Shown here: positions 18,403 to 55,787 of the stretch, in pieces
Layout of the letters: every line of letters begins with the position of its first letter
Numbering within the stretch: position 1 is the stretch's first letter
Source of the DNA: Promethearchaeota archaeon
GTDB lineage: Archaea > Asgardarchaeota > Lokiarchaeia > Sigyniarchaeales > SOKP01
Assembly (NCBI GenBank): GCA_004375715.1
Contig: SOKP01000182.1
Span: 3,813-67,812 of the forward strand
Direction: 5' to 3'
DNA: 64,000 nt
Position numbers and translations under genes: made by a program
Notes under the pieces: model-generated
Told to the model about the DNA's origin: nothing
The model's database searches: none
The model's input: the letters and a program-made list of their open reading frames with translations, nothing else

Positions 18403-18840
18403 TCAATTCAAGATAAACTCTCTAATCTCGTTCTGAAACGGTTCAAATTGATTAAACTCAGTAAAGTCCTTGTTACTATATCTCGTTATAAAAAGGTTTA
18501 AGATGGGGTCAATTTTTTCAAGGAATTTTTTAACAAACTTATCGGGATCTTTCTTTCTTTTGTCTACTAATCCATACAAAATGACTGGTTCCTTTGAATT
18601 GCAATCTGCGGCTTGCATTTCAAGTGCTTTAAAAATAAATAAAATGTTCCCCGATTCTAAATATTCTAATGAAAGATTGTTAAAAGCGGTTTTAGCAAAT
18701 AGTGTTATCGCTGAAATAAATCCTCCTCTCAAATCCATGCTCACATTTTTAACTTTATCTCTTTTTTCAATTTTCTTAAACTCACAGCTTACTAAGATAA
18801 ATCCTCGGAAAACAATACCTATTTCGTACAGTTCTTTCAT
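18403..18840 (-). CDS. Longin-like (SNARE-like/profilin-like fold) small protein
   Basis: beta-beta-alpha-beta-beta-beta-alpha pattern: IGIVFRGFILVSCEF ... GGFISAITLFAKTAF ... LEYLESGNILFIFKA ... VILYGLVDKRKKDPDKFVKKFLEKIDPILNLF, resembling Sec22/sedlin-type longin domains. Fold assignment is by eye only. Confidence 0.5.
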   Translation of the reverse strand: MKELYEIGIVFRGFILVSCEFKKIEKRDKVKNVSMDLRGGFISAITLFAKTAFNNLSLEYLESGNILFIFKALEMQAADCNSKEPVILYGLVDKRKKDPDKFVKKFLEKIDPILNLFITRYSNKDFTEFNQFEPFQNEIREFILN

Positions 18841-38893: not shown

Positions 38894-40105
38894 CTAATCT
38901 AAATTCGTTTTATTTCTTTGATCTACTACTTTTTTAATCCTTTGCATAGTTTCTTCGAGAATCAATTTTGTACAAGCCACATTAATTCTTTGAAATCCTT
39001 CTCCACCGGATCCAAATAATTTACCTTCATCAAGTGCTACATTTGCTTTGTTTAGAATAAGATTTTTTAAATCTTTGTCATTCAAGCCCAAAAAATTAAA
39101 ATCTAACCAACCAAGATAAGTTCCTTCAGGTTCAATATATTTGATATCAGGAAGGTTGTTTGTAACAAATTCGTCTAATAATCGGAAATTTGAATTTATA
39201 TATTTTAATACTTGTTCCAACCATTCTTCTCCTTCGTTGTATGCGGCAATCATTGCTACGATCCCAAACGAGTTTGGTATGCCTATTCCATTTTTATCTA
39301 CGATGGTATGAATAAATGATTGACGCAGTTTTTCATTAGGTATTATGATATTAGACACCTGTAAACCAGCAAGATTGAATGTCTTACTTGGTGCTGTACA
39401 TACTATAGCTTTTTGTTCAAATTCTTCAGATATAGTTGAGAAAACAGTATGATTATTTCCTGGAAGTATAAGATCATGGTGAATCTCATCAGATATAACC
39501 AATATATCGTGCTCTAAACAAATATCTCCTAATTTTTTTAGTTCTTCTCTGGTCCATACTCTTCCTACGGGATTATGGGGACTACATAAAATAAATATCT
39601 TTGCGAGTGGATCTTTTGCTTTCTCTTCAAAATCCTCGAAGTCAAATGTATATTTTTGATTCTCATAATGCAATTGGTTTAACAAGAGTTTTCTTCCATT
39701 TGCGGTTACGGCACTAAAAAAGGGATAATATACTGGGGGTTGTACGATGATTTTATCTCCTATGTTTGAAAATGTTTGAACCATCATGTTAATCGCGGGA
39801 ACTATTCCCGGGCTATATACAATCCATTTAGGATCAACTTTCCAATGATGTCTTTTGTCCATCCATCCAGTTACCGCATCTAGATATTTAGGAGTACCAT
39901 GCCAATTATACCCGTAAACATATCCTTCTGCTTCTTTTATAATTGCATCAACCACGGGTTTTGGACATTCAAAATCCATGTCTGCTACCCAGAGTGGTAA
40001 TAGATCATCATTATCTTTTTTAAAGACCATTTGAAGTGCTTCTTTACTCCATTTAAGTGAAAATGAATCTCTACGATCAATAAATCTATTAAAATTATAT
40101 TTCAT
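38894..40105 (-). CDS. PLP-dependent C-S lyase / aminotransferase (MalY/PatB family)
   Basis: DRRDSFSLKWS N-terminal signature, LPLWVADMDF, SPHNPVGRVW, APSKTFNLAG (PLP-Lys). Confidence 0.85.
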   Translation of the reverse strand: MKYNFNRFIDRRDSFSLKWSKEALQMVFKKDNDDLLPLWVADMDFECPKPVVDAIIKEAEGYVYGYNWHGTPKYLDAVTGWMDKRHHWKVDPKWIVYSPGIVPAINMMVQTFSNIGDKIIVQPPVYYPFFSAVTANGRKLLLNQLHYENQKYTFDFEDFEEKAKDPLAKIFILCSPHNPVGRVWTREELKKLGDICLEHDILVISDEIHHDLILPGNNHTVFSTISEEFEQKAIVCTAPSKTFNLAGLQVSNIIIPNEKLRQSFIHTIVDKNGIGIPNSFGIVAMIAAYNEGEEWLEQVLKYINSNFRLLDEFVTNNLPDIKYIEPEGTYLGWLDFNFLGLNDKDLKNLILNKANVALDEGKLFGSGGEGFQRINVACTKLILEETMQRIKKVVDQRNKTNLD

Positions 40106-40189
40106 TTTTATCTTAAACTCGGATAGATAATTAATAATATATATTATTCAAAAGTACATAAGAATATAATAGATTCAAGGTGTTAATTA

Positions 40190-41410
40190 TTGAATAAAGT
40201 TGCTATTGTGGGTGTTGGACACACTAAATTTGGAAAGCTTCAAAAGGGTTTATTGGATATTTTGTCAGATGCGTCACTAGAAGCAATAGAAGACTCAAAC
40301 ACTAATGATAAAGATTTTGGTTCGGTATATGTCGGAGCCATGAGTCCTGCTGCTTTTAATAATATATCTGGAATAGCAAGCGCTTTAGTAGATCGCATAA
40401 GTTTATTGCCTGCTGCTGCTGACCATATAAAAAACGGTCCTGCCAGTGGAGGTTCTGCCATAAAAGCGGGGTTTCAAGCAATTGCGTCAGGAATGAGTGA
40501 TTTAGTTTTGGTTGTAGGGGGGGAAAAGATGACTCATATAACAGCTCCCGGATATGTCACCTCAAATGTGGCAACATTAACACACCCGGAAGCTGAAAGA
40601 CGACATGGTGTTTCACTTCCTTCGTTTGCGGGATTACTAACCAGAACATATCTCGAGAAATATGATGCAAAACTAGAATGGATTTCTGATATCGCAATTA
40701 AAAACCATAAGAATGGCGCTTTAAATCCAAATGCTCATTTTCAGAGAACAATTGAAAGTTTTATGGAAAGCGCAATTAATAAAGGAAAAGGAATTTGGGA
40801 GAATATACAGGAATTCCTAAATGACGATAAGGCAAATCCGATAATTGCTGATCCACTGAGACTTTTTCATGTTTGCCCGATTTCAGATGGTGCTGCTGCT
40901 TTAGTCTTATGTAATGCTGAAAAAGCAAAAGACTATTGTGATACGCCTATTTTAATTTCTGGTATTGGACAAGCAACCGATACTCAAATAGTGTTTGAAC
41001 GGGAGGAACTGACAACACTGAAAGCTTTACGGATATGCTCTAATCAAGCATACAAAATGGCTCACAAATTTCCAAAAGATATGGATGTAGCCGAATTACA
41101 CGATGCTTTTGAAATTCTTGAGGCTGTGCAAAGTGAGGATATAGGCTTCTTTGATAAAGGAGAAGGCGCTAAAGCTGCTCATGAAGGTCTAACTGCGATA
41201 GGCGGTAAAATCCCTATTAATCCTTCTGGGGGTTTAAAAGCAAGAGGGCACCCGCTTGGAGCCACTGGAGTAGCCCAAGTTGTAGAATTAGTGTGGCAAT
41301 TAAGGGGAGATGCAGATAAAAGACAAGTTGATGGCGCTGAAACAGGAATCACATGTAATTTTGGTGGATTTGGGAATAATATTATTTCAATATTGGTAGA
41401 GAGAATGTAA
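40190..41410 (+). CDS. Archaeal-type thiolase (SCP-x/acetoacetyl-CoA thiolase-like)
   Basis: VAIVGVGHTKFGK, SGGSAIKAG, NPSGGLKARGHPLGATG, NFGGFG. TTG start with AGGTG upstream. Confidence 0.85.
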   Translation: MNKVAIVGVGHTKFGKLQKGLLDILSDASLEAIEDSNTNDKDFGSVYVGAMSPAAFNNISGIASALVDRISLLPAAADHIKNGPASGGSAIKAGFQAIASGMSDLVLVVGGEKMTHITAPGYVTSNVATLTHPEAERRHGVSLPSFAGLLTRTYLEKYDAKLEWISDIAIKNHKNGALNPNAHFQRTIESFMESAINKGKGIWENIQEFLNDDKANPIIADPLRLFHVCPISDGAAALVLCNAEKAKDYCDTPILISGIGQATDTQIVFEREELTTLKALRICSNQAYKMAHKFPKDMDVAELHDAFEILEAVQSEDIGFFDKGEGAKAAHEGLTAIGGKIPINPSGGLKARGHPLGATGVAQVVELVWQLRGDADKRQVDGAETGITCNFGGFGNNIISILVERM

Positions 41411-41436
41411 TTTTTTGTAAAAATATGAATTAAATA

Positions 41437-43347
41437 TTAATTGGATTCTAACTCTTCTATTTCTGCAATAAAAAGATTAGCAATAGCAAGCCAATTTTTT
41501 TTTGTTTCTAAATCTGATTTACTCTTCTCTGCATATTTAATTCCTGATTCCAACTTTTCGAATGCTAACTTATACTTACCAAGCTCTTTATAACATATCC
41601 CTAATTTTATGTGCGTTTGGAATGTAAACCACTCGTCTGAGCTTATTTCGATAGCTTTGAGGAACTCATTTTTGGCTTTTTCATAATCTTGGAAGGACAT
41701 TAACATTTCACCATAGGTATCGTGATAAATGTTGTTATCAGGGTCTTGTTCAATTAGATTTTGAATTATTTCTACAGCTTCTTCTTTTCGGTTTAAATAT
41801 TGTAACCAATAAGCTTTGTAAGTAAGAAGTTCTGTATCTTCCGAGTATTTTTCGAGCAATTCATTAATAATCTTAAGCCCTTCCTCTACATTCCTCTTCT
41901 CTTTAAGGATATAAGCTGCTTTAATCTTGATGTCCTTCTCTTCATCGGGGAATTTTTCGAGCATTTCATCTAAAAATGTTAATAATTCATCGTATTTGTT
42001 AAAATAAATTAACAAGCGCTCTTTGGCAACATAGCTGTCAAACTGGTCAGGATTTAAGCTAAGGGCTTTATTCACTTCTCTGATATTCTCGTCGTAATTT
42101 GTGAATTCTTGAAGTAAATATTTTTTCGAACTATAGGTTTGGACTTCATGCCATATTAAACCCTTTAACTTGTCATAAGTGTCAATCAATTTTTTCTCTT
42201 TTTCCACTTTGTAGGCCAAGTAAGCAATATAATTTGGTAACAAGTTCTTTAAAGAATATCGCAGCCCTTCATGGAAAAGTGGGCCACAAACTTCGTCTAA
42301 TATCGCATCTATTGTGGATTCTAAAGTTGTTGAGTAGGATTTATCTTTATCTTCTTCGTATAGTTTGTTTAAGTAAGTGAATCTTGTGATATGTTCTTCG
42401 ACTACAGCGTTCAACATCCTTTCAAGCTTCTCATTAGCTTGGAAAAAATATATTTCATCAATATCTCCCTCCAATTTGAAGAATTTAACAGGAAATATCT
42501 TTTTCTCAACAATTTGTAGAACATGAAACTCTAAAACTACCAATTCCAACCCATATTTTTTAGCAAATTTCTCAGTAGAAATAAAGATGGGATATTGTGA
42601 TGGATGATTTATCGATAAATAAAGAAGTATTTTGAAGAAATCATCTTCACTTTTTAAAGATTGCTTGATTCTTTCGTGAGGTAATCTCAAAAGGTTATTG
42701 AGAAATCGAAATCTTGTTTCATCTTCAATTATGCTATACTTTTTGAAGAATTTTAGTGTTTTTTTAGTATTTTCTCTGATTCGATTACTTTCTTCTTCCA
42801 AAATCGATTGACGGTCTAAGTCGTAGTCCCTCAACATTACGGAATATTCTGCTTTACCCAATTGAGTAATCCTATACTCCTTATTTTCTTTTTTGACAAA
42901 TCCGTCTTCAATTAAGGCATTCATATTTTTGGATAAAGAAGAATTATTTATTGAAAGAGGTTCATTTAGTAAATCTGCCCATTTACAGAAAGTATTATTG
43001 TAAACCATCCATAATATCCAATGATCGTAATTTCTTTTCCACAAAATTGCTTTCGGGGGGTAATTTAATTTCCTTTTTTGTTTCGTAGCCTGTGATAGTT
43101 CATAAAATCTGTCTTGTCCTTTTGTTGTTATCGTATATTGATTAAATTCTTTCTTTTCAATTAACTCTGCTAACAAAAGTTTTTTCAGATAAATCGATAA
43201 TGTTGAAGGTTTAATCTTTTCTTTTAAATTAGACCACGTGCATACTTCGTTGTTATTGAGCATCCAGAGTATTACTAATTCAAAGTTAATTTTACCAAAG
43301 ATAGGTTCTATAACTTCTTTAGGTGGGTAATTAATTGGAGAGGACAT
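41437..43347 (-). CDS. Two N-terminal winged-helix domains + central helical region + C-terminal TPR repeats
   Basis: Duplicated wHTH-like segments (FELVILWMLNNNEVCTWSNLKEKI...LIEKK..YTITTKGQDRF; DHWILWMVYNNTFCKWADL...GFVKKENKEYRITQLGKAEY). The C-terminal ~220 aa have 34-aa TPR periodicity. Confidence 0.6.
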   Translation of the reverse strand: MSSPINYPPKEVIEPIFGKINFELVILWMLNNNEVCTWSNLKEKIKPSTLSIYLKKLLLAELIEKKEFNQYTITTKGQDRFYELSQATKQKRKLNYPPKAILWKRNYDHWILWMVYNNTFCKWADLLNEPLSINNSSLSKNMNALIEDGFVKKENKEYRITQLGKAEYSVMLRDYDLDRQSILEEESNRIRENTKKTLKFFKKYSIIEDETRFRFLNNLLRLPHERIKQSLKSEDDFFKILLYLSINHPSQYPIFISTEKFAKKYGLELVVLEFHVLQIVEKKIFPVKFFKLEGDIDEIYFFQANEKLERMLNAVVEEHITRFTYLNKLYEEDKDKSYSTTLESTIDAILDEVCGPLFHEGLRYSLKNLLPNYIAYLAYKVEKEKKLIDTYDKLKGLIWHEVQTYSSKKYLLQEFTNYDENIREVNKALSLNPDQFDSYVAKERLLIYFNKYDELLTFLDEMLEKFPDEEKDIKIKAAYILKEKRNVEEGLKIINELLEKYSEDTELLTYKAYWLQYLNRKEEAVEIIQNLIEQDPDNNIYHDTYGEMLMSFQDYEKAKNEFLKAIEISSDEWFTFQTHIKLGICYKELGKYKLAFEKLESGIKYAEKSKSDLETKKNWLAIANLFIAEIEELESN

Positions 43348-43593
43348 AACCTAAGGCCATCTAGCTAAAATCTTTATAGATCTAATATATAATGGGCATC
43401 GAGTTTATTTATACATTACGGTCTAAAAGAAATATGGAACTCCAATTATAATTATGTAGTATAAACATTTTATAAACTTAACTTTCCACTAGTATAAAAA
43501 ATCGTATAAACCGATTTAATACTAAAGCTTTATATTAAAAAAAAGCCTAGCTTTATATTAAGAAATATTTCATGTGATTCTTAAAAGCTATCA

Positions 43594-44145
43594 ATGAGTG
43601 AAACTAACAAAAAATTTAGATTTAAGATTACTGTTATAGGAGATGGTGCAGTAGGTAAGACATCTCTAATCCAAAAGTTCACTAATGATAATTTTAAAGA
43701 AGAATACATCAAAACAATTGGAGCTCAATTTTCCGTATTTGATAGAAAAATCGATGGAGACAAAATAAAGTTATTATTCTGGGACATCGCAGGACAAGAT
43801 TCATTTAATTTCTTACGACCCTCATTTTTTAACAATAGCGTTGCTGCAATAATTGTGTATACTCTTGAAAAAAATGAACATGGGGAAGAAAGTTTTAATC
43901 ATATTCATAACTGGGCTGCTGATATTGAAAAATACTGCGGAGATATTCCTGTGGTAATTTTTGGTAATAAAGTAGATTTGGTAGACGAGAAAAAGATAGA
44001 TACTTCGGCTATCGAAAAAATTGTTGAAGAAAAGAACTACTTGGGACACTTCATTACTTCAGCAAAATCAGGGCAAGGAGTAATTGATGCATTTAATACA
44101 ATTATTGATGAACTATATGTTAAATATAAAGACATACCTGTTTAA
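43594..44145 (+). CDS. Rab/Ras-like small GTPase
   Basis: G1 GDGAVGKTS, G2 region YIKTIG, G3 WDIAGQD, G4 GNKVDL, G5 TSAKSG. 183 aa, with no C-terminal Cys prenylation motif. Confidence 0.9.
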   Translation: MSETNKKFRFKITVIGDGAVGKTSLIQKFTNDNFKEEYIKTIGAQFSVFDRKIDGDKIKLLFWDIAGQDSFNFLRPSFFNNSVAAIIVYTLEKNEHGEESFNHIHNWAADIEKYCGDIPVVIFGNKVDLVDEKKIDTSAIEKIVEEKNYLGHFITSAKSGQGVIDAFNTIIDELYVKYKDIPV

Positions 44146-44165
44146 AAGAACTTTATAAGCCTCAT

Positions 44166-45257
44166 TCATTGTTTAGTTTTTTCCAAATAATCAGGTACGA
44201 AATCAAAAAATTCCTCTACTAACGCTTTCGCCTTTTTAAACCTACTAACTTCATACAATCCACCAAAATGAGACTTGAATTCATCAATAAACTGAGAATT
44301 GAACTTCTTAAGTCCATAGCGCAAAGATTTAGATGATTTTGTAGTAACTAAAACAGAAGCAACTGGGTAGTCCTTATTGTGTTGAATTAAAAGAACTGCC
44401 CGATCCATCTTGATTTCCCGTATTTCTCCTTTCTTTAATAATTCATCTAAAATACTACCCACTGCTTGGAGTACCATAGTAAAGACATTCTCGTCTACAG
44501 CTCTCAATTTTGCCCAATCGTGTTTAAATAATCCAATGCCGGCATTCGTCTCAACAACCAAAAGTCTATAAGCTTTAAAGGGGAGAATATAAATGACTTT
44601 AGGTTCTTTCCATATTACTATTATCGTAAATAACGCTCCTAAACTATGAGTTATAAATCCTAACGAATTGAATATTTTAATAAAAGTTCCTAAAAAGTAC
44701 AGTGTTGCCGTTACAAATGAAAATAGGATACTACCAAACAATAAAAAGCTTACAAGCTGCTTTAATTCACTCGGAGCTCTTTTCCAAGTGAGGTAACTCC
44801 AACTAAAATAGGTCATTACGTAGTAAAAGAGGAAAATAATTTGAAATGTTCGAAGAGTGCCAACAATATGGACGCCATAACCAGGTATAATTTGCATCCC
44901 TCCAGGCATAAAAGTTAAGTATAACAAAGTAATCTCAATTAGAAATAAAATCGTGATCTTAATTGAACTCACGCGTTCTTTTTTAATGAGGTCAATAAAT
45001 ATAAAAAGACAGGGAACACCAATTATTTGTGGTATTATCGCAAGGACCATTAATAGTGGTGAATAATAAAGATGCGAAGCGGCATCTAAAGCCCAAAAAA
45101 AAGATTGCAATAACCAATTTGCTGAAAATAAATACACTAGTCGATTTTTTCTTTTTTTCGCGTAAGAAAATGAAAGCAAAAATCCAATAATGTTTAACAC
45201 GCCTGCTGCTGATGCGGATGATACTAATAAAATATTATCAAAACTAATCATTTTCAC
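44166..45257 (-). CDS. Seven-TM membrane protein with C-terminal longin-like cytoplasmic domain (paralogue 1)
   Basis: Seven hydrophobic segments in aa 1-215. Then LLVVETNAGIGLFKHDW...VFTMVLQAVGSILDELL...IREIKMDRAVLLIQHNKDYPVASVLVTTKSSKSLRYGLKKFNSQFIDEF (beta-beta-alpha-beta-beta-beta-alpha). Confidence 0.6.
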   Translation of the reverse strand: MKMISFDNILLVSSASAAGVLNIIGFLLSFSYAKKRKNRLVYLFSANWLLQSFFWALDAASHLYYSPLLMVLAIIPQIIGVPCLFIFIDLIKKERVSSIKITILFLIEITLLYLTFMPGGMQIIPGYGVHIVGTLRTFQIIFLFYYVMTYFSWSYLTWKRAPSELKQLVSFLLFGSILFSFVTATLYFLGTFIKIFNSLGFITHSLGALFTIIVIWKEPKVIYILPFKAYRLLVVETNAGIGLFKHDWAKLRAVDENVFTMVLQAVGSILDELLKKGEIREIKMDRAVLLIQHNKDYPVASVLVTTKSSKSLRYGLKKFNSQFIDEFKSHFGGLYEVSRFKKAKALVEEFFDFVPDYLEKTKQ

Positions 45258-45279
45258 CTCTTTTCAAATATGATTTTAA

Positions 45280-46362
45280 TTATATTATCTCACTTTTATA
45301 GCTCGGGACAAAATCGAATACCTGTTCAACTACTTTTAAACCCTCGTTGAAATCACTAACTTTTCGTGAGCTTTCTAAAGTTCTTTGAAACCGTCTAACA
45401 AATTCTTCGTTGAATCTTTTTAATCCATATCTCAGTGATTTCGAAGATTTTGAGGCTATTAAAACCGATGCAATTGAGTTCTCTTTATTATGGTTAATAA
45501 GAAGGACTGCTCGATCCATTTGGATTTCTTGGACAACACCTTTTTTTAAAATATCATCTAAAACACTCCCAATAGCTTGGATCATCATAGTAAAGATATT
45601 TTCCTCAACTTCTCCTGCTTTCGCCCAATCGTATTTAAATAAAGCCACGCTTGCTATAGTGTCTACTACTAAAATTCGGTAAGCCTTAAAAGGTAAGATA
45701 TATATAATTCTTGGATCTTTTAAAATAACTAAAATAGTGATAAACGCGCCAATCCCATTTATAAAGAACCCTATGGCGTTAAAGGTTTTTATAAATGACC
45801 CAATTGCATACATTACCCCTGTTACAATTGAAAAAATAGTGCTCCCAAATAATAAATAACTTGTTAAGCGTTTTAAATCCGAAGGAGCCTTACGCCAAGT
45901 ATGGAAACTCCATAAAAAATAAAAAATCATGAAATAAAAGATGTAGATAATCTGCGCTATCCGAAGTACGCCTTTGTTATGAATTCCATATCCAGGAATA
46001 ATCTCCCAATTATCAGGTACATAAAAAGTGATAATAAAAACTAAAGCTTCTATAATCATAAGTATCGAAATTTTGATTGGACTCACATGCTCTTTTCTGC
46101 TAAGTTCTATAAAAATTATAATACAGGGAATTCCTATCAGTTGTGGAACAATCGCTAAGGCCATTAGTGGTATTGAGTAAAAATAATGAGCCGCTGCATC
46201 TATAAACCAAAAAAGAGCATAGCTTAACCACATTGCAGAAAACAAGAAAATAAGCCGATTTTTTCTTCGGAACGCATAAATAAATGTAATTGTACCACCA
46301 ATTGCTACTAATGTCCCCGTTATAGAGGTAGATAACACGAGCAGTAAATTTTCGATACTCAT
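45280..46362 (-). CDS. Seven-TM membrane protein with C-terminal longin-like cytoplasmic domain (paralogue 2)
   Basis: Collinear with 44166-45257 over its full length, with the same 7 TM segments and cytoplasmic domain (ILVVDTIASVALFKYDW...IFTMMIQAIGSVLDDIL...VQEIQMDRAVLLINHNKENSIASVLIASKSSKSLRYGLKRFNEEF). Confidence 0.6.
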   Translation of the reverse strand: MSIENLLLVLSTSITGTLVAIGGTITFIYAFRRKNRLIFLFSAMWLSYALFWFIDAAAHYFYSIPLMALAIVPQLIGIPCIIIFIELSRKEHVSPIKISILMIIEALVFIITFYVPDNWEIIPGYGIHNKGVLRIAQIIYIFYFMIFYFLWSFHTWRKAPSDLKRLTSYLLFGSTIFSIVTGVMYAIGSFIKTFNAIGFFINGIGAFITILVILKDPRIIYILPFKAYRILVVDTIASVALFKYDWAKAGEVEENIFTMMIQAIGSVLDDILKKGVVQEIQMDRAVLLINHNKENSIASVLIASKSSKSLRYGLKRFNEEFVRRFQRTLESSRKVSDFNEGLKVVEQVFDFVPSYKSEII

Positions 46363-47083
46363 GATACTTTTTTTTTTATATTTTTTGGCTCATTACTAAT
46401 CTTTGTTTGTAAGGAAAAACCTTACGAGGATTTCATATATAACTAATCTCTAATTAAACAAATATTGTTTTATTCCTATTTAAAAGATTATTCATTATTG
46501 TAAATTTTTCTTTAAAAATGTCGTAAATCATTAAAAAATTTCAATGTTGATATTCAAAAAAAGAGATATAACGTATGTTTTGGGTTATTTTTTATTTAAC
46601 TAAAAGAACCGCTCTATTCTATTATTATTAACCAGTCCAGCTCTAATCCAAGACTCCGATTGAAGTGCATTTTTATAAACTAAATATGGACTGCAATTGA
46701 CATCATATTAACGAATATGGAAAAAATAAGTGAGTAAATTATGAAGGCTCTAAGTGCTGAAAATGAAGTAATCACTATATGGTTACCACTTCTAAGCCCC
46801 TCTAAGGGCAGGGTTAATAAGGGAAAAGGGCGAAGTTAACCCTTTTAATAATATCGCCTTATTTTTTTCTTTTCGTTCAATTAAGTGATAAATGCCTAAG
46901 AATTGTAATTTTTCAAACTTAAATTAGAGTACAACCGTATTCGACTTCTAATTATCAATCGAGGGATAGTCTAAAATGTCTTAAAATCCTCTTTTTTTAG
47001 ACTATTTTTTGATTTCTAAGCTTAATATTTCTAAATAATGCCATATTATATGTCAGTAGGTTTATGAAAATTATAACTTACAG

Positions 47084-47446
47084 ATGAGACTAGTGAATAT
47101 TGAAGAGAATATCTTTTGGCGTAAATGTTTAAATTGTGGTTTGCTCCAACATAACACTCATATAAGGTGTTTAAAATGTAAGAACGATGATTTTGAGACT
47201 ATCGAAGCTTCAGGCACCTGCAAACTGCTCACTTATACCATCTTAAAAGCTCCCCCTGCTGAATTCCGAGATAAGGTGTCTTATGCTCTTGGAGTTGTGG
47301 AATTTGAAAATGGTGTAAAAGGACTCGGTCAAATCACAACGCAAAATAATTTGCAAACAGGAATGACATTAAAACCAATTTATCGAAAAATTTGTGAAAA
47401 CTTAGACGGAAAAGAAGTATATGCTTATGTGTTTGAACCAGTTTAA
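47084..47446 (+). CDS. DUF35 family Zn-ribbon/OB-fold protein (acyl-CoA-associated)
   Basis: Zn ribbon CLNCG...CLKC, then SGTCKLLTYTIL....YALGVVEFENGVKGLGQI......GMTLKPIY OB-fold pattern typical of DUF35. Confidence 0.8.
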   Translation: MRLVNIEENIFWRKCLNCGLLQHNTHIRCLKCKNDDFETIEASGTCKLLTYTILKAPPAEFRDKVSYALGVVEFENGVKGLGQITTQNNLQTGMTLKPIYRKICENLDGKEVYAYVFEPV

Positions 47447-47463
47447 TTAGGTTATTAGTTATT

Positions 47464-47469
47464 AGGAGG
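47464..47469 (+). promoter_or_regulatory. Shine-Dalgarno-like site for the mutase gene
   Basis: AGGAGG ending 7 nt before the ATG at 47477. Confidence 0.5.
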
Positions 47470-47476
47470 AAATAAG

Positions 47477-49153
47477 ATGTTATCAGATAAAGAACTTGAA
47501 AAAATTGAAAATAAGAGGAAAGAGTGGGAGGAACAAATCTTAAATAAGTTCACCGAAAGAGGAGAGAGGAAAGATAACTACGAATCCCCTTCAGGAATTC
47601 CTTTAAAGCCCGTATATGGACCTGAAGATATCCAGAATATTAATTATTTAGAGGATATTGGATTTCCTGGAACTCCTCCTTTTACGAGGGGAGTTTATCC
47701 AAACATGTACCGTGGTCGTATCTGGACTATGCGACAATATGGGGGTTTTGCTGATGCTGCTAAAACAAATGAAAGATTTAAATATTTAATATCGGAGGGC
47801 CAAAAGGGTCTTTCAATTGCGTTTGATTTACCAACCCAGATGGGGTACAACAGCAATCATAATATTTGCTTAGGGGAAGTAGGTAGAGTTGGCGTAACAG
47901 TTAATTCATTAAGAGATTTTGAACAAGTATTCGAGGGAATTCCTTTGGATAACGTTTCCACAAGTATGACTATAAACGCTCCTACTTCAGTTTTATTAGC
48001 GATGTATATTGCTGTAGGTGAAAAACAAGGAGTAAATCCTGAACAGTTGACTGGTACTGTTCAAAATGACATTTTAAAGGAATATGTTGCGAGAGGGACA
48101 TATATTTTTCCTCCAAAACCTTCATTAAGACTAGTAGCAGATGTAATTGAATATTGTTCAAAAATTTTACCTCGTTTTAATACAATTAGTATTAGCGGGT
48201 ATCATATGCGCGAGGCAGGGTGCAACGCTATCCATGAAATTGCGTTTACATTAGCGGATGGAATCGCTTATGTTGAAGAAGTTCTTAATAGAGGGGTAGA
48301 CATTGATGATTTTGCAACACGATTATCTTTCTTTTTTACTACTCATAACAACTTTTTTGAAGAAATTGCTAAGTTGAGAGCTGCTCGAAAGCTTTGGGCA
48401 AAGATTATGAAAGAACGGTTTCACGCTAAGAATCCAAATTCTTTAAGATTGCGATTCCACACACAAACGGCTGGAGTTACATTAACAGCTCAACAACCTA
48501 ATGTCAACATTGTAAGAGTAGCTCTTCAAGCTCTTGCGGCAATATTAGGAGGGACGCAATCACTACACACTTGTGGTGCGGACGAAGCTTTGGCTATCCC
48601 AACAGAGGAATCTGTAAGGTTATCCTTGCGAACTCAACAGGTACTCGCGTATGAATCGGGGGTTACTGATGTTGTAGATCCTCTCGGAGGTTCATATTAT
48701 ATCGAGTATCTTACTTCACAGCTAGAAGAAAAAGCTTTGGAATATATTGAAAAAATAGATAAGATGGGAGGTATAACTAAAGCGATTGAAACGGCTTTCA
48801 TTCAACGAGAAATCCAAAATAATGCTTATAGCGAACAATTAAAGATTGATGAAGGGATAAACCAAATGATCGGGGTGAATGCATTTTGTACTGAAGACGA
48901 GTGCACGATTGAAACATTTAAACACGATGATAATGCAGAAGGAAAAATTATAGAAAATTTAGCCGAACTTAAGAAAAATAGGGATGAGGGGCTCGTGCAA
49001 GAGATGTTAAAAGAATTAGAATGTATTGCTAAATCGACTGAAAACATCATGCCCGTTATGATTAAAACTGTTAAAACATATGCGACTATTCAAGAAATAT
49101 GCGATGTTCTAAGAACAGTTTTCGGAAAATATGATTCTCCACAGGTTTTTTAA
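47477..49153 (+). CDS. Methylmalonyl-CoA mutase family, large catalytic (N-terminal) subunit without fused B12-binding domain
   Basis: PGTPPFTRGVYPNMYRGRIWTMRQYGGFADAAKTNERFKYLISEGQKGLSIAFDLPTQMGY, SGYHMREAG, FHTQTAGVTLTAQQP. Confidence 0.9.
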   Translation: MLSDKELEKIENKRKEWEEQILNKFTERGERKDNYESPSGIPLKPVYGPEDIQNINYLEDIGFPGTPPFTRGVYPNMYRGRIWTMRQYGGFADAAKTNERFKYLISEGQKGLSIAFDLPTQMGYNSNHNICLGEVGRVGVTVNSLRDFEQVFEGIPLDNVSTSMTINAPTSVLLAMYIAVGEKQGVNPEQLTGTVQNDILKEYVARGTYIFPPKPSLRLVADVIEYCSKILPRFNTISISGYHMREAGCNAIHEIAFTLADGIAYVEEVLNRGVDIDDFATRLSFFFTTHNNFFEEIAKLRAARKLWAKIMKERFHAKNPNSLRLRFHTQTAGVTLTAQQPNVNIVRVALQALAAILGGTQSLHTCGADEALAIPTEESVRLSLRTQQVLAYESGVTDVVDPLGGSYYIEYLTSQLEEKALEYIEKIDKMGGITKAIETAFIQREIQNNAYSEQLKIDEGINQMIGVNAFCTEDECTIETFKHDDNAEGKIIENLAELKKNRDEGLVQEMLKELECIAKSTENIMPVMIKTVKTYATIQEICDVLRTVFGKYDSPQVF

Positions 49154-49351: not shown

Positions 49352-52300
49352 TTGCATAATTATTTCAATAAATATTCGTATAAAGTCAACAAAGAGAAAA
49401 GGTTTAAAGGAAGAATAGGGTATATTAATAAGAAAAAGTCAGTGAAGTTCATTAGTTTTTTACTTCTTTTCAATATCATTTTGATTTCCTTAATTACCAG
49501 CAGTTTTCTTAATTTTAATAGATTGCTCAACGATTTTAATGATGGAATTGATGATAGTCCATCGGTACCAAATATTTCTTCAAGTGATCCTCCGAATAAA
49601 CACTTTTTTCAAAACTATAAAGTGATAACAATTGATCATAACTTGGTTTCTGGAACAGGGAGTCATAAGAATTTTCCTGTTTTAATTTCTATTTTGGATT
49701 CAGACTTACGTAACGAGGTTCAATCAAACGGGAATGATATTGCTTTTGCTAACGATACGGCTTGGTTAGATCATGAAATTGAACTCTTTGATCAATCATT
49801 TAATGAGACTTATGCTAAATTAGTAGCATGGGTTTGCATTCCATCTTTATCAACTAATACAAACACTCTTATAACAATGTATTATGGTAATTCAACTATG
49901 AGTTCGCAACAAAATCCAACTGGAGTATGGGATAGTAATTATGAAGCTGTATGGCATATGAATCAAGATCCTTCATCTTCTAATATCTTAGATAGTACAT
50001 CTAATAATAATGATTTAAATACTAACGGATTCGCTTCTGATCAACGAATATATAACGGAAAAGTTGGAACAGCAATAACCTTTGATGGAATCAATGATTA
50101 TCTTAATATTAGTTCTTTTTCAGGACCAACAGATGGATTTACTTTTCAATCCTGGTTTAAATTTGATGATGAATATAATGCTAGTCGGAGCGAAATGTAT
50201 CTTTTTAGTGGCAGTACAGCAGGACGCAACAACCCACGAGTGAGATTTTATCCGGGGGGTGGGTATACTGTTGGTTCTGTTGCGACAACAACTGATGAAA
50301 ATGATAGTTGCGATGGTGTTAAAAATGTTTGGGCTGCTGATACTTGGTTCCATTATGCCTTTAGATTCTCAATTCCTATTCAAACCACAACCATTTATAT
50401 CAATAGTACTGTAGATGGTTTTAAGGATGATGCTGATCTTAGTTACCCACACCTTGCGTGGAATAGGTTAACTATAGGATCAAATGATGGGACTAATGTA
50501 TGGGGATCAGGGGCAATCTCAGAGTTTAGAGTCGTAAACATTCCTCTTTCCGTAGACTGGATCAATACAGAATACAATAATCAATATAATCCTTATGCTT
50601 TTTATTCAATTGGAAAAGAATATACCGTATCAGGTATTCCACCTGATGAGCAATATTTCAAATGTTATAAAGAAATAATAATAAACCATACAATGGTAAG
50701 TGGCTCACTTGATCTTATTAACTTTCCTTTGCTGATTTCTATTTTTGATTCAGATTTACGTTATGATGTGCAATTAAATGGAGATGACATCGCCTTTGCT
50801 TACAATGGTGCATGGTTAGATCATGAAATAGAACTCTTTAATCAAACTTTTAATAGCACGGATGCACAATTAATAACCTGGGTTTGCATACCAAGACTTT
50901 CGACATCTTTGGATACAATTATTCGCATGTACTATGGTAATTCCACCATGAGTTCACGAGAAATCCCTACTGAAGTATGGAGTAATAATTATAAAGGCGT
51001 GTGGCATCTCTCAGAATCTACGGGAAGTGCTTTAGATTCCACTTCTTACAGTACAGCAGGGTCAGTTTCAGGTACTGTTTCTCGAGATCCAACTGGAAAA
51101 ATCGATAGCGCTTATAATTTTGGAACTGATGGTCAGATTAATTTTGGTGATCCTCCGGATGGGCATTTTGATATGGGTACAGGAAGCTTCACTATTAGTT
51201 TTTGGATAAATATAGATGCTAGTACAGGAAATTATCAATTACCTTTACATAAAGGCGCTGATGTTGTAAGTGAAGCTGGTTATGATTTTGAAACGGATGT
51301 ATCTGCAACATCACTCACCTTTCACATTTCAGATGGCACAAATCTCGCATCAACATCACCGCTATCTATTATTTTCGACAGTTGGATATATGTTGTTGGA
51401 GTTGTTGATAGAACATTAAATTCAATCCGTCTTTTTCAAGATGGACAGATAGTAGGCTCTGGAACAAGCATTGCTGGTATTGGAAATCTAACTAACAATA
51501 AACCTCTTTTAGCACCTTATTCAACTTATGATCTAGATGGTTTTTTAGATGAAATACGAATTGCCACTACTGCTCATTCAGCAGACTGGATCGCTACTGA
51601 ATATAACAACCAATACAATCCTCTATCTTTTTTGACCATAGGTTCAGAAGAAAAGTTCGATTTTTCACCCCCTACTTATTCAAATCTAACAGAAAGTTCA
51701 GACCCATTAGAATTGGGTGATATAGAAGTTATAACGATCAATGTTTCCGATCCTTCAGGTATTAATCAAGTGAAAATCGAATTCATGAGCTCTAACGATT
51801 CCCTGACCAATATTGGTGGAGATATTTGGCAATATGACGCGTGGATTCCCAACAGTGTTGGTAACCATACATATACAATCTGGATGGAGGATAACTATAA
51901 TAATTGGAATTCTACTATAGGAACTATCGAAGTGATAGATACCACCTCCCCAACTTATTCAGATATCATTGAAAGTGCGGATCCTTTACAACTAGGACAA
52001 AATGTAACAATTAGTATTAAGGCTTACGACTCTCCGGGTTCAGGAGTGAATCAAACTCTTTTAGAATATGGGTCATCAAATCATACGATGATTTTTATAG
52101 ATGGAAACACATGGAGTTGGAATACGTGGAAGCCATTATCCTCAGGAATTCACCCTTATAAAATTTTTATGCAAGATATGGAAAATAACTGGAATATGAC
52201 CAGTGGAACAATAACGGTTGTATCTACGACTGCTCCCGTAATAGAAAATCTTACAAAGAGTGAGGATCCTTTAGAATTAGGAAACAGTATTACTATTACG

Positions 52301-54496
52301 GTTGATGTATTTGATAACGAGACTTTCGTATGGGATGTTTTAATTGAGTTAGATGGAGTAAATCACACGATGACCGCTATTGGTGGATTTACATATGAGT
52401 ATAATTGGACTAGATCCTATGTTGGCACCATTTATTACAGTGTTTATGCAAATGACACGGACAATAACTGGAATTCATATTCTAGTAGTTTTGACATTGT
52501 AGATACGACTCCACCTGCTTTTTCAGACCTTGCTAAAAGTGAAGATTCCTTAGAATTTGGAAATACGGTAATAATATCAGTAAATTCTACTGATTTATCA
52601 GATATTAACCAAGTTAAAATCGAATTCATGGGGTCTAACCATTCCATGACCAATATTAGTGGTTTTACATGGCAATATGACTCTTGGATTCCCAACAGTG
52701 TTGGTAACCATACATATACGATATGGGCAGAAGATAATAATAATAATTGGGGCTTTATTAGTGAATCGTTTTTAGTTCGAGATACAACGCCCCCAATTTA
52801 TTCAGATTTGACCGAAAGCGGTAATCCTGTCGAATTAGGTACTACATTAATTATTTCGATTAATAGTACCGATTTAGCTTACCTCAAAGATGTTTCAATA
52901 GAATATAGAAATTTTAATCATACTATGACAAACATAGGTGACGACATATGGCAGTATAATTCTTGGATGCCAAATTCAATAGGTAATTATACTTACAAAA
53001 TTTACATGACAGATAATAATGATAATTTGAATTATGTTAGCAGTTCGATACAGTTTCAAGATACCATCATCCCCGTCTATTCTAATTTGTTTGAAAGTAC
53101 TGATCCTTTAGAGTTAGGGGATTCTGCGATCATCAGAATTAGAATCTATGACTTCGCAGGTATTAACCAGTCCTTACTAGAATTCGAAGGTTCTAATCAT
53201 TCTATGACAAATATTTATGGAGATACGTGGCAATATGATTTATGGACACCAAATAACTGGATTCTTCATCAATATACAATCCATATGAAAGATAAGAGCG
53301 GTAATTGGAATTTTGTAATAGCTAATATTACTATTCAAGATACAACTCCTCCCCCTTCACCAGTATTGACAAACAGTCCAAGTGGAGATGTCAGTGGTAT
53401 CTTAGTATTTGATTGGTCAGATGGTTCTGATCCTTCAGGCATCTCATATTATTTCTTAATTATTGATAACGAGACCGATCCATTTGCAACTCCAGGATTT
53501 GTATACATCTTTAATATTACGAACTCTGGAATACAAAGCAGTTATTACGAGTTGTCGGAGAATCTTAACGAGGGTACATATTATTATTTTCTTTCTCAAA
53601 TTGATGGAACTGGACATCAGAGCAGTTACACTATGGGAACTTTTACTATAGTTCCTACTAATAACGAACCTGGGAATACTGATTTTTTGATAGTTATCAT
53701 CATTGGAATAATTTTCGCAAGTGTAGCAGGATTGCTTCTTACTGGTATAATTGTAAAAAGAAGAACTAAAAAGGAAGTCCTCCCGCAATTAAAAAAAATT
53801 TCTCTCAAGCCGATAATCCTGCATGTGGACAAAATTTTAAGGTCAAGTTCGTTTCTCAAAATAGATACAGAAAAATTTAAAATCAAAAAAGAAGAGACAG
53901 TAACACTCGGGGAAGAACATAAACACTATGATAAAGAGTTAGAATCCCGTTTAAATGAAATTAAAACCTTAGGAGAGGAATTAATGGATGAAGGCGCTTA
54001 TTTGGAAGCTTTTAAGCAGTTTGAACTCGCGAGAGAAATATTATCGGGATACAATAGAAATGAAGAAGCAGAATTATATTCTGAATTAATTGTCGGTATA
54101 AAAGGTTTAATTGAGGAACGAGAAAGACGATTTGCAATATTGGAACAAGAAAAAGTTCAGGGCAATTCCGTAAGAGTGTATGAATTATACAATGAATTAA
54201 TGGTTATTTCAGAAAAACTTAGAGATATTGATGCTATCCAAATGTATCAATCAGAATTAATGCAATTTTTTCAAGATGATGAAAAGAAAGCCCTTGATCT
54301 GGAGAAGTTAAGGGATCTTCTTGAAAAACGGGCAGATTCCTTATCAAATGACAATCATTTCGAAGAATCCGCTAAAATATATGAAAAATGTGAAAATGTT
54401 TCCCTTTTTCTGGTACAGTTAGGAAAAGAAGAAGAAACTATAAATGTTAAATGTTTCAGGGATAAAAAAGTCGATTCTTTAGAGAAACGTCCTTGA
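49352..54496 (+). CDS. Giant type-I surface protein: signal/anchor, 2x (DUF2341 + LamG), 6 Ig-like repeats, FN3-like domain, TM helix, ~290-aa helical cytoplasmic tail
   Basis: DUF2341 pattern twice (NFPVLISILDSDLR..NGNDIAFA...WLDHEIELF...AWVCIPSLS....ITMYYGNSTMSS). LamG-like cores end ...ADWIATEYNNQYNP. Six ~93-aa repeats start DTTPP.YS.L.ES.DPLELG. TM segment FLIVIIIGIIFASVAGLLLTGIIV followed by KRRTKK. Many N-x-S/T sequons. There is no in-frame ATG near the 5' end, so the start is TTG 49352 or GTG 49442 (the latter gives MKFISFLLLF...). Confidence 0.8.
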   Translation: MHNYFNKYSYKVNKEKRFKGRIGYINKKKSVKFISFLLLFNIILISLITSSFLNFNRLLNDFNDGIDDSPSVPNISSSDPPNKHFFQNYKVITIDHNLVSGTGSHKNFPVLISILDSDLRNEVQSNGNDIAFANDTAWLDHEIELFDQSFNETYAKLVAWVCIPSLSTNTNTLITMYYGNSTMSSQQNPTGVWDSNYEAVWHMNQDPSSSNILDSTSNNNDLNTNGFASDQRIYNGKVGTAITFDGINDYLNISSFSGPTDGFTFQSWFKFDDEYNASRSEMYLFSGSTAGRNNPRVRFYPGGGYTVGSVATTTDENDSCDGVKNVWAADTWFHYAFRFSIPIQTTTIYINSTVDGFKDDADLSYPHLAWNRLTIGSNDGTNVWGSGAISEFRVVNIPLSVDWINTEYNNQYNPYAFYSIGKEYTVSGIPPDEQYFKCYKEIIINHTMVSGSLDLINFPLLISIFDSDLRYDVQLNGDDIAFAYNGAWLDHEIELFNQTFNSTDAQLITWVCIPRLSTSLDTIIRMYYGNSTMSSREIPTEVWSNNYKGVWHLSESTGSALDSTSYSTAGSVSGTVSRDPTGKIDSAYNFGTDGQINFGDPPDGHFDMGTGSFTISFWINIDASTGNYQLPLHKGADVVSEAGYDFETDVSATSLTFHISDGTNLASTSPLSIIFDSWIYVVGVVDRTLNSIRLFQDGQIVGSGTSIAGIGNLTNNKPLLAPYSTYDLDGFLDEIRIATTAHSADWIATEYNNQYNPLSFLTIGSEEKFDFSPPTYSNLTESSDPLELGDIEVITINVSDPSGINQVKIEFMSSNDSLTNIGGDIWQYDAWIPNSVGNHTYTIWMEDNYNNWNSTIGTIEVIDTTSPTYSDIIESADPLQLGQNVTISIKAYDSPGSGVNQTLLEYGSSNHTMIFIDGNTWSWNTWKPLSSGIHPYKIFMQDMENNWNMTSGTITVVSTTAPVIENLTKSEDPLELGNSITITVDVFDNETFVWDVLIELDGVNHTMTAIGGFTYEYNWTRSYVGTIYYSVYANDTDNNWNSYSSSFDIVDTTPPAFSDLAKSEDSLEFGNTVIISVNSTDLSDINQVKIEFMGSNHSMTNISGFTWQYDSWIPNSVGNHTYTIWAEDNNNNWGFISESFLVRDTTPPIYSDLTESGNPVELGTTLIISINSTDLAYLKDVSIEYRNFNHTMTNIGDDIWQYNSWMPNSIGNYTYKIYMTDNNDNLNYVSSSIQFQDTIIPVYSNLFESTDPLELGDSAIIRIRIYDFAGINQSLLEFEGSNHSMTNIYGDTWQYDLWTPNNWILHQYTIHMKDKSGNWNFVIANITIQDTTPPPSPVLTNSPSGDVSGILVFDWSDGSDPSGISYYFLIIDNETDPFATPGFVYIFNITNSGIQSSYYELSENLNEGTYYYFLSQIDGTGHQSSYTMGTFTIVPTNNEPGNTDFLIVIIIGIIFASVAGLLLTGIIVKRRTKKEVLPQLKKISLKPIILHVDKILRSSSFLKIDTEKFKIKKEETVTLGEEHKHYDKELESRLNEIKTLGEELMDEGAYLEAFKQFELAREILSGYNRNEEAELYSELIVGIKGLIEERERRFAILEQEKVQGNSVRVYELYNELMVISEKLRDIDAIQMYQSELMQFFQDDEKKALDLEKLRDLLEKRADSLSNDNHFEESAKIYEKCENVSLFLVQLGKEEETINVKCFRDKKVDSLEKRP
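51658..53340 (+). repeat. Six tandem ~281-nt coding repeats (Ig-like modules) inside the surface protein gene
   Basis: Periodic DTTPPxYSxLxES motif. Units 1 and 4 share a perfect 35-nt match (51842-51876 = 52685-52719). Confidence 0.85.
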
Positions 54497-55771: not shown

Positions 55772-55787
55772 GAGGTGAAATGAATAA

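Follow-up and report, generated by a model that had tools for sequence, protein, structure and literature searches.

In eukaryotes, organelle identity and nutrient signalling depend centrally on longin and roadblock platforms, which switch Rab, Arf and Rag GTPases at particular membranes; Asgard archaea encode many longin and roadblock domains and GTPases. Here we describe Asgard proteins in which seven transmembrane helices (7TM) are followed by a longin-like domain in the cytoplasm. The starting point was a tandem pair of such genes, 7TM-A and 7TM-B, in a 64-kb stretch of a Lokiarchaeial Promethearchaeota genome (positions 3,813 to 67,812 of contig SOKP01000182.1, assembly GCA_004375715.1), the whole of which is called the window below. 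The pair adjoins genes for a Rab-like small GTPase as well as for a protein with two winged helix-turn-helix regions and tetratricopeptide repeats (wHTH-TPR protein), and the original prediction, made from the letters of this DNA, had proposed that the 7TM proteins are receptors coupled to the GTPase. We find that the pair belongs to a large, apparently undescribed family of Asgard membrane proteins, the 7TM-longin family, and that coupling of a 7TM receptor to a small GTPase is plausible on circumstantial evidence.

The closest described systems are the eukaryotic longin regulators, among them the Rab guanine nucleotide exchange factors (GEFs) Mon1-Ccz1, Fuzzy-Inturned and HPS1-HPS4, the TRAPP core (TRAPPC1/C4, sedlin) and the GTPase-activating proteins (GAPs) FLCN-FNIP and Nprl2-Nprl3. 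They have the order β-β-α-β-β-β-α-α in common with the 7TM-longin proteins; their subunits are paired paralogues, as are the tandem A and B genes, and the latter have Rab- and Rag-like GTPases as neighbours. No above-threshold sequence relationship connects the two groups, however, and the tri-longin Rab GEFs carry three consecutive longins per subunit, whereas 7TM-longin proteins have one per chain. The eukaryotic complexes are soluble and recruited by lipids or proteins; the 7TM-longin domain is fixed covalently to a seven-helix domain.

Ragulator-Rag (LAMTOR1-5, RagA/C) is also a membrane-tethered platform of longin/roadblock type, serving a Rag GTPase with a C-terminal roadblock, and the likeness extends to gene order: in four relatives of the window locus (L011-L014) a Gtr1/RagA-type GTPase gene lies directly downstream, and 8 kb from its pair the window itself encodes a Rag-type GTPase that carries a Robl_LC7 domain. 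The subunits of Ragulator adopt the roadblock fold and depend on a lipidated anchor, LAMTOR1, whereas 7TM-longin proteins have the longin fold and an integral membrane domain; in addition, the GTPase that adjoins the window's pair is Rab-like and without a roadblock, and the comparison implies no TOR kinase pathway. Rags are also acted on by membrane proteins of the lysosome, such as SLC38A9 and GPR137B. With G-protein-coupled receptors (GPCRs) and their heterotrimeric G proteins the family has in common seven helices with the N-terminus out and the C-terminus in, a variable outer face above conserved cytoplasmic loops, weak Foldseek matches of the bundle and, as proposed, the logic of a receptor acting on a GTPase. 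It differs in lacking sequence homology, a retinal lysine and a Gα protein, and the GTPase-facing element would be the fused longin rather than the receptor's own loops.

Among prokaryotic systems, the 7TMR-DISM and HisKA_7TM receptors follow the same design of a seven-helix module and then a cytoplasmic signalling domain; their outputs are a kinase, cyclase or phosphodiesterase, whereas the output here is a longin, and there is no extracellular DISMED-type domain. MglA-MglB and the Asgard roadblock proteins (Roadblock2 of Prometheoarchaeum, 9jq8) provide prokaryotic regulators of a Ras-like GTPase from the longin/roadblock superfamily, but the roadblock order opens with an N-terminal helix that is absent in 7TM-longin proteins, MglB is soluble, and no Robl_LC7 match was found here. 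A preprint counted 130 Roadblock/longin asCOGs and described NPRL2-like longins joined to two-component domains (Liu et al.); fusions of a GTPase with a longin or with a roadblock are also known from Asgard archaea, in which gene order rarely helps to match regulators to GTPases (Tran et al. 2024, PMC10933270). Unusual Asgard longin and roadblock fusions are already known in general; what appears to be new here is a longin-domain protein that a receptor-like bundle holds in the membrane.

Of the two tandem genes, the upstream one, 7TM-B (45280-46362, minus strand, 360 amino acids), encodes a membrane domain of seven helices in residues ~1-215 (nucleotides 45718-46362) and a linker plus cytoplasmic longin-like domain in residues 216-360 (45283-45717); it matches the 7TM and longin hidden Markov models (HMMs) of the family at 1.5e-51 and 2.6e-48, respectively. 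7TM-A (44166-45257, minus strand, 363 amino acids as an open reading frame, ORF) begins 22 bp 3' of it, and the two are probably co-transcribed. Its membrane domain occupies residues 1-217 (44607-45257), with an extracellular β-hairpin at 121-131 between helices 4 and 5, and its conserved linker and longin-like domain residues 218-363 (44169-44606); the true start is probably the ATG at 45251, because homologues open with 'MISFDN'. The proteins are paralogues, 55% identical over 355 amino acids (E = 4e-140). The gene for the Rab-like small GTPase (43594-44145, plus strand, 183 amino acids) converges on 7TM-A, the two stop codons being 20 bp apart, and in turn diverges, across a 246-bp spacer (43348-43593), from the gene for the 636-residue wHTH-TPR protein (41437-43347, minus strand). 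All four ORFs lie exactly where, and on the strands on which, the original prediction had placed them, and its account of two full-length paralogues converging on a GTPase gene that diverges from a wHTH-TPR gene is correct; what was seen there goes well beyond chance. Upstream of 7TM-B, 720 bp (46363-47083) hold no ORF of more than 32 codons and no Rfam match, and L001, the closest relative, retains a spacer of comparable size (~690 bp); an Rfam scan of window positions 40000-48000 returned no RNA family.

Hydropathy and an AlphaFold2 model agree on the seven hydrophobic helices that had been claimed for each paralogue. In the model of 7TM-A, built on 46 homologues (predicted local distance difference test score, pLDDT, 86; predicted TM-score, pTM, 0.80), these span residues 6-36, 39-63, 67-93, 98-116, 133-160, 163-189 and 195-217. 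In a set of 97 diverse family members (22-56% identical to 7TM-A), lysine and arginine residues average 8.7 over the three loops predicted to be inside and 1.3 over the N-terminus plus the three outside loops; the inside count is the higher in 97 of 97. From this positive-inside bias it follows that the N-terminus is outside and the C-terminal domain cytoplasmic, the placement on which the original prediction depended. Extracellular mass is nearly nil, the outside N-terminus comprising ~5 residues. Four polar residues within the helices, D58, H62, R136 and N197, are invariant in the A/B subfamily.

Identification of the bundle as a microbial rhodopsin was rejected: helix 7 (195-217) reads FNSLGFITHSLGALFTIIVIWKE, its sole lysine lying at the cytoplasmic end and not mid-helix; no lysine column is conserved in helix 7 in the close-subfamily or the diverse-family alignment; and neither the window proteins nor the 97 members match Pfam Bac_rhodopsin. 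The 3+1+3 repeat of SWEET/PQ-loop proteins was rejected as well, hhalign giving a probability of 1.4% for TM1-3 against TM5-7 and 0.4% for other registers. Pfam and NCBIfam transporter families had no match to 7TM-longin proteins. Of the 97 members, three matched 7TMR-DISM_7TM (best E = 0.0026) and one HisKA_7TM (E = 4.9e-4), in both cases under the curated threshold, and comparison of the bundle with the PDB by Foldseek gave weak matches to class A GPCRs and microbial rhodopsins (8hnk_R, 6tp3_B, 8r97_F; TMq ~0.36, E ~0.04).

In the C-terminal ~145 residues of the same model, DSSP assigned the order β-β-α-β-β-β-α-α (strands at 229-236 and 242-247, helix at 253-273, strands at 280-283, 288-293 and 299-305, helices at 310-333 and 337-350), which is the predicted β-β-α-β-β-β-α pattern with one extra C-terminal helix, the longin order. 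Longin and roadblock domains are told apart by the order of their elements (Tran et al. 2024, PMC10933270), and with no N-terminal helix and two C-terminal helices the order here is that of a longin rather than a roadblock. Roadblock/LC7 was rejected on this account; no helix precedes strand 1 save TM7 and a five-residue linker turn, and Robl_LC7 is not matched. When the full-length model was searched against the PDB with Foldseek, ~25 of the top 30 matches were longin domains, with target-normalised TM-scores of 0.5-0.65. They came from AP sigma subunits, TRAPP subunits including TRAPPC2/sedlin, Ykt6, VAMP7, Sec22b, zeta-COP and Fuzzy, and eukaryotic longin regulators of GTPases were represented, in this search or in that with the domain alone, by 7b6d_E, 2j3w_A, 7q3d_C, 9rs9_A, 9rs6_A, 5ldd and 7t3a_O. 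Roadblock proteins (LAMTOR, MglB, Asgard Roadblock2) ranked under the longins; SNARE, adaptor, TRAPP and Mon1/Fuzzy longins were about equal in rank, so that no subclass was favoured. A model of the domain alone, with a pLDDT of 58.8, had the identical element order and retrieved the same longin set, including Mon1-Ccz1, and is taken as a consistency check only. Sequence searches yielded less: the window's 7TM proteins and their C-terminal domains had no Pfam match at E ≤ 10, longin-profile searches of PDB sequences found nothing, and Fuz_longin_1 and Intu_longin_1 were touched by two (9.6e-4) and one (0.052) of the 97 members, all below threshold. 'Longin-like' is thus a fold-level assignment; judged on the predicted structure, the domain agrees with longins in element order and three-dimensional similarity, without sequence-profile membership. 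Structure prediction and Foldseek, the checks that had been proposed for the domain, both find it longin-like.

A further claim, that the C-terminal domain can be aligned to the free-standing protein at 18403-18840, did not stand, in that BLASTP found nothing and hhalign of the profile against the single sequence gave 0.2%. Against a profile of that protein's family (577 homologues, almost all of 145 amino acids, no Pfam domain) the match was weak (probability 18.8%, E = 0.0013, 40 columns, in register over β2-α1), and remote kinship is possible at the level of profiles. The gene at 18403-18840 (minus strand), for a highly conserved 145-residue Asgard protein, is convergent, with a 5-bp gap, with one for a 559-residue beta-propeller (16718-18397, plus strand; Beta-prop_BBS7 6e-25, BBS2_Mid 3e-11).

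A word-seeded search recovered 175 relatives of the pair, all ~355-365 amino acids long, all annotated as 'hypothetical' and none with a Pfam domain; those with a named source were all from metagenome-assembled genomes (MAGs) of Asgard archaea (Loki/Promethearchaeota, Thor, Hod, Hermod). Word-seeded searching from the diverse alignment recovered only the close subfamily and hence was uninformative. An exhaustive profile search of 1.84 billion representative proteins gave 725 clusters at 50% identity, 299 of them with E ≤ 1e-30, nearly all full-length, of ~360 amino acids and with the same 7TM-longin architecture; 30 divergent representatives were looked up, and each that was named was Asgard, Helarchaeota included. 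Rare variants carry a C-terminal alpha/beta-hydrolase (P0236) or an unannotated C-terminal tail (P0212); in the former, a 630-residue protein from outside the window, Abhydrolase_1 (5.6e-12) covers residues 426-618, after the longin domain. Neither Pfam nor NCBIfam has a model for the family. Full-text literature searches turned up no account of a 7TM or other transmembrane protein with a longin in Asgard or other archaea, nor of the TPR-longin architecture and gene unit introduced below; Tran et al. 2024 and a structure-based survey from 2026, both covered, gave none either. This agrees with the original prediction, which knew of no described 7TM-longin fusion family. The text of the 2020 asCOG preprint describes neither the 7TM-longin family nor the TPR-longin family introduced below, either of which may stand uncommented in its supplementary tables.

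Conservation among the 97 members is concentrated on the inside. It is highest in the loop between helices 5 and 6 (intracellular loop 3, ICL3; A-P-x-x-L-K, 3.5 bits) and in the linker from TM7 to the longin (3.0 bits), which reads P-K-x-I-Y-I-L-P-F-K-A-Y-R with L-P-F near-invariant; the longin strands and first helix are also among the best conserved parts. Conservation is lowest in the extracellular loops (0.8-1.1 bits) and in the outer halves of the helices, which score 1.38 bits against 1.65 for the inner halves. On alignment evidence, a variable outside and a conserved inside are what would be expected if a receptor family had diversified while its members kept one cytoplasmic partner in common.

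The GTPase at 43594-44145 is canonical, as had been claimed. It matches Pfam Ras at 5.6e-42, its best PDB matches are Rab21, Rab1A, Rab8A, Rab43 and Rab35 (E 1e-29 to 1e-27), and motifs G1 to G5 are intact when read from the sequence (G1 GDGAVGKT, G3 DIAGQ, G4 NKVD, G5 SAK). It ends in ...YVKYKDIPV, its only cysteine is internal and a prenylation motif is absent; without a lipidation cysteine, the protein would therefore need a protein anchor to act at a membrane. The wHTH-TPR protein has the two winged-helix regions (~23-87 and ~111-173) and C-terminal TPRs (~426-616) that had been described, and matches HTH_34, HTH_45 and several TPR families in Pfam as well as Sso10a, Sta1 and Lrs14-type HTH models in NCBIfam. 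It is likely a DNA-binding partner or regulator of the GTPase module. The two genes are paired in L001-L010 and L016, and are duplicated as a unit in L007, L009 and, partly, L001 without extra 7TM genes. In the spacer between them, a divergent promoter region with conserved elements resembling TATA boxes and transcription factor B recognition elements (BRE), AGCTTTATATTAA occurs at 43526-43538 and again at 43549-43561, and seven orthologous spacers preserve the first copy together with a second A/T-rich box. A special regulatory role for the repeated AGCTTTATATTAA was rejected; at least two matches occurred in 20 of 100 shuffles, and the copies resemble ordinary TATA/BRE elements.

In order to compare gene neighbourhoods, 32 loci with 7TM-longin genes were taken from GTDB genomes and from contigs encoding divergent members, and were annotated by tblastn, phmmer and local HMMs. 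In the closest relatives (L001-L009 and L016, at least 69% identity) the order of 7TM-B, 7TM-A, a convergent Rab-like GTPase and a divergent wHTH-TPR gene is preserved, with orthologues of the GTPase holding the window position in these loci and in L076. Flanking thiolase, aminotransferase, OB-fold and mutase genes are often preserved in the same loci, and the window-type order was therefore counted as one inherited arrangement. In the sister loci L011-L014 (57-60% identity), a ~321-residue GTPase of Gtr1/RagA type (Pfam Gtr1_RagA 2.5e-25) is encoded on the same strand, 136-200 bp downstream of the 7TM gene or genes, and its similarity to the window's Rag-type GTPase reaches into the roadblock region. 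Two different GTPase families thus adjoin orthologous 7TM-longin genes, a Rab-like one in the window-type loci and a Rag-type one in L011-L014. By distance census, GTPase genes occur at 0.25 per kb within 500 bp of 7TM-longin genes and at ~0.02 per kb beyond 1.5 kb, a signal that comes from two synteny groups only. GTPase adjacency thus characterises the A/B subfamily rather than the family at large. Tandem 7TM-longin pairs recur (the window, L001-L009, L012-L014, L016, L027 and L076, with a triple in L112), which fits hetero-oligomers.

Several further observations were made at these loci. L004 (contig DATKTW010000167.1) is filed under 'Candidatus Nanopelagicaceae bacterium', an actinobacterial MAG; the locus is syntenic and Lokiarchaeial, its proteins are 84-92% identical to those of the window, and the filing is probably a binning error in that MAG. 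In L020 (914-2713), the gene for a 306-residue Arf/Rag-like GTPase directly adjoins one for an Rce1-like CAAX protease, beside a TPR-longin gene and ~8 kb from a divergent 7TM-longin gene; a CoA ligase similar to acetyl-CoA synthetase neighbours the Rag/Arf-like GTPase in both L020 and L011-L014. A 183-residue protein with a C-terminal winged-helix-like segment and no Pfam match is encoded at 11068-11640 (minus strand) of L109, convergent on a divergent 7TM-longin gene.

The longin half of the family was also found on soluble proteins. Its HMM matches the C-termini (~480-600) of ~600-residue TPR proteins at E values of 1e-6 to 1e-8, and the 7TM and TPR longins have in common the motif G-G-x-x-L-F-S-H-x-F ... 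D-x-L-F-S-x-F-L-S-A-F ... E-x-F-x-x-G. There is no Pfam model for the longin part of these TPR-longin proteins, and a longin HMM scan found no TPR-longin gene in the window. Such genes are near 7TM-longin genes in L001 (four copies), L010, L013, L014, L020 and L076. A metagenome scan with a TPR-longin alignment gave 80 loci, from which 67 non-redundant anchors entered a census: the density of GTPase genes is 0.18 per kb up to 500 bp from the anchors versus 0.017-0.046 per kb farther away (~6-fold), and wHTH-TPR genes are enriched within 3 kb. TPR-longin genes build tandem arrays, and in the typical unit a TPR-longin and a Rab-like GTPase gene are on the same strand, 50-170 bp apart, and the other strand carries a wHTH-TPR gene; among L028-L107, examples are L031 (6944-9427), L034 (9349-11830), L053, L056, L064 (392-6570), L070, L098 (7552-12088) and L107, and units also lie at L001 13819-21080 and L010 1687-7714. 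The GTPases beside TPR-longin genes belong to the Rab-like clade of the window. L076 has two TPR-longin genes, wHTH-TPR, GTPase and two 7TM-longin genes in one locus with the window's layout, and in L010 a GTPase and then a TPR-longin gene on the same strand converge on a 7TM-longin gene.

The same longin type was found on a 348-residue SLOG protein (L080 6553-7596, plus strand; LSDAT_prok 2.4e-6, longin E = 5e-14 at residues 201-318) and on a 269-residue protein without Pfam annotation (L109 8289-9101, plus strand; E = 6.7e-9); no fusion to a GTPase domain was seen within 112 loci. This longin behaves as a shared C-terminal module behind varied N-terminal sensor or scaffold modules. Adjoining a TPR-longin gene in L090 are tandem genes for ~325-residue Ras-family GTPases (11938-12915 and 12912-13877, both minus strand), each of which ends in two hydrophobic helices and has no longin; these appear to use transmembrane segments, not lipid groups, as their membrane anchor.

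The reading that we favour, tentatively, is that A and B form a membrane-embedded longin platform that docks or regulates a small GTPase without a lipid anchor. The two proteins would come from a single transcript and associate by way of their longin domains, by analogy with nearly all characterised longin and roadblock proteins, and the conserved linker would hold the longin-fold domain against the cytoplasmic face of the bundle. Together with the conserved inner loops, we infer, the dimer would form a membrane-bound docking or regulatory surface, whether as an anchor, a GEF or a GAP. Its GTPase partner may be the adjacent Rab-like protein here and, in sister lineages, the one of Rag type. 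Where the platform works, or to which membrane or small-molecule cue it answers, would be set by the 7TM part. The wHTH-TPR protein would be a plausible downstream or regulatory partner of the GTPase, and the platform may belong to a wider Lokiarchaeial network that takes in the soluble TPR proteins with the same longin and the wHTH-TPR protein as a putative transcription factor. In its favour are the fold and topology, the receptor-like conservation pattern, the tandem genes, the two GTPase families beside orthologous 7TM-longin genes, the joint locus L076, the recurrence of this longin behind other N-terminal modules, the missing lipidation cysteine of the GTPase and, indirectly, the TPR-longin genes that often adjoin co-directional GTPase genes of the window's clade; the receptor-GTPase idea of the original prediction is in this way partly supported.

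Several points weigh against this platform reading. Longin domains also function without GTPases, as in SNAREs and the sigma and mu subunits of adaptors. As to the fold, the best longin matches in Foldseek have E values of 6e-3 to 7e-3, none reaching 0.001, helix 1 of the longin-like domain is modelled at a pLDDT of 54-64, and sequence profiles found no PDB or Pfam longin at threshold. As to the neighbourhood, the window-type arrangement is found only among relatives that keep the flanking thiolase and aminotransferase genes, and may be plain synteny. The original prediction looked for an association with GTPases elsewhere, and this holds for the A/B subfamily, with its Rab-like and Rag-type neighbours, but not for the wider family; by Pfam labels and our own HMM, ~14 divergent independent contexts (L015, L017, L020, L022-L027, L108-L112) have no neighbouring small GTPase, and their neighbours are heterogeneous, including glycoside hydrolases, MFS (major facilitator superfamily) and ABC (ATP-binding cassette) transporters and RadA. 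Two adjacencies in ~16 contexts correspond to P ~0.04-0.13, taking the contexts as independent and the background as 2-4%, which is not significant. In the window the GTPase gene and the 7TM pair are convergent and therefore do not share a transcript; the recurrent partners of the GTPase are wHTH-TPR and TPR-longin genes, also where 7TM-longin genes are absent; and these genomes are dense in GTPases, the window having three in 64 kb. According to Tran et al. 2024 (PMC10933270), the GTPase genes of strain MK-D1 do not, in general, share operons with genes for longin or roadblock proteins.

Much of this would be explained if the protein were a membrane sensor or scaffold in which the longin is a general interaction or dimerisation module, the GTPase and wHTH-TPR genes forming a separate module that is a neighbour through inherited gene order. 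The convergent orientation, the flanking metabolic genes that are conserved along with the cluster, the duplication of GTPase and wHTH-TPR genes without 7TM genes in L007 and L009, and the ~14 contexts without a GTPase, with family-wide adjacency short of significance, all speak for such an arrangement. Against it, two GTPase families are found beside orthologous 7TM-longin genes in two lineages, the homologous TPR longin is enriched beside the same Rab-like GTPase clade, and L076 and L010 unite all components in one locus. On balance we regard inherited proximity as a somewhat unlikely explanation, yet one to be taken seriously.

A stronger form of the platform reading, which we consider doubtful, is that an Asgard-specific seven-helix receptor senses a membrane or small-molecule cue and, through the fused longin heterodimer, itself switches a Rab- or Rag-like GTPase, which would then signal to the wHTH-TPR transcription factor. 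If true, such a receptor-GEF would amount to GPCR-like logic built entirely from small-GTPase parts. It would also be the prokaryotic counterpart, and perhaps the forerunner, of longin/roadblock platforms anchored at membranes, for instance Ragulator-Rag and Mon1-Ccz1.

Doubtful in like degree is the possibility that 7TM-longin proteins anchor the soluble TPR-longin proteins through longin-longin heterodimers, the TPR-longin being the real GTPase regulator and the wHTH-TPR protein the transcriptional output. The 7TM and TPR longin domains are homologous, and longin and roadblock domains are typically dimeric (Levine et al. 2013, PMC3747258; Tran et al. 2024, PMC10933270), which would suit heterodimers of this kind. 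It is moreover the TPR-longin genes, not the 7TM-longin genes, that are adjacent to and co-directional with GTPase genes, and they lie 0.5-6 kb from 7TM-longin genes in L001, L010, L013, L014, L020 and L076. Yet the window is without a TPR-longin gene, and in the census anchored on TPR-longin genes none was within 3 kb of a 7TM gene.

A transporter or channel, in which the 7TM part moves a solute and the longin-like domain is a regulatory or gating appendage, is improbable. Several members lie near genes for MFS sugar transporters and glycoside hydrolases (GH4, GH130, alpha-amylase, GH123), and the invariant polar residues in the helices of the A/B subfamily speak for it too; however, the sugar genes vary between loci, there is neither a 3+1+3 repeat (hhalign at most 1.4%) nor a transporter match in Pfam or NCBIfam, and what weak 7TM matches there are lead to receptor modules (7TMR-DISM_7TM, HisKA_7TM), GPCRs and rhodopsins. 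Transporters usually conserve the TM core, which is the least conserved part of this family. Least likely of all is a SNARE- or coat-adaptor-like role in trafficking or remodelling, with the longin acting as in Ykt6, Sec22, VAMP7 or the sigma and mu adaptins, since against the membrane anchoring and the many SNARE and adaptor sigma longins among the best fold matches stand the missing SNARE heptad motif, a reversed domain order with the longin last, an anchor that is a seven-helix bundle and not a single tail, the lack of coat or adaptor genes nearby, and a Foldseek ranking that favours no longin subclass.

The rest of the window (G+C ~33%) is likewise abundant in eukaryote-like genes; it holds three small GTPase genes, the BBS7/BBS2-like beta-propeller and the Rag-type GTPase with a roadblock domain. 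The last of these (54572-55771, plus strand; Gtr1_RagA 1.3e-38, C-terminal Robl_LC7 7e-8) has an N-terminal extension of ~100 residues and is followed after 16 bp by an ORF of 290 codons (55788-56660, plus strand) without a Pfam or NCBIfam match, the cluster at 54572-56660 being 8 kb from the 7TM-longin pair. At 19-1581 (plus strand), a 520-residue multidomain protein has a central Ras-family GTPase domain (residues 168-328, Pfam Ras 7e-48) flanked by unannotated regions of ~165 and ~190 residues. The 1714-residue product of 49352-54496 (plus strand), with Laminin_G_3, DUF2341 and Big_7 domains, is probably a giant surface protein.

Taken as families, the 7TM-longin proteins, with their hundreds of subfamilies, and the TPR-longin proteins supply concrete, testable pairs of regulator and GTPase, and suggest a route by which archaeal GTPases without lipid anchors could reach membranes. 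Should the proposed coupling prove false, the 7TM-longin proteins would still merit a family model, as a large class of Asgard membrane proteins yet to be characterised; should it prove true, receptor-to-small-GTPase signalling at membranes would predate eukaryotes.

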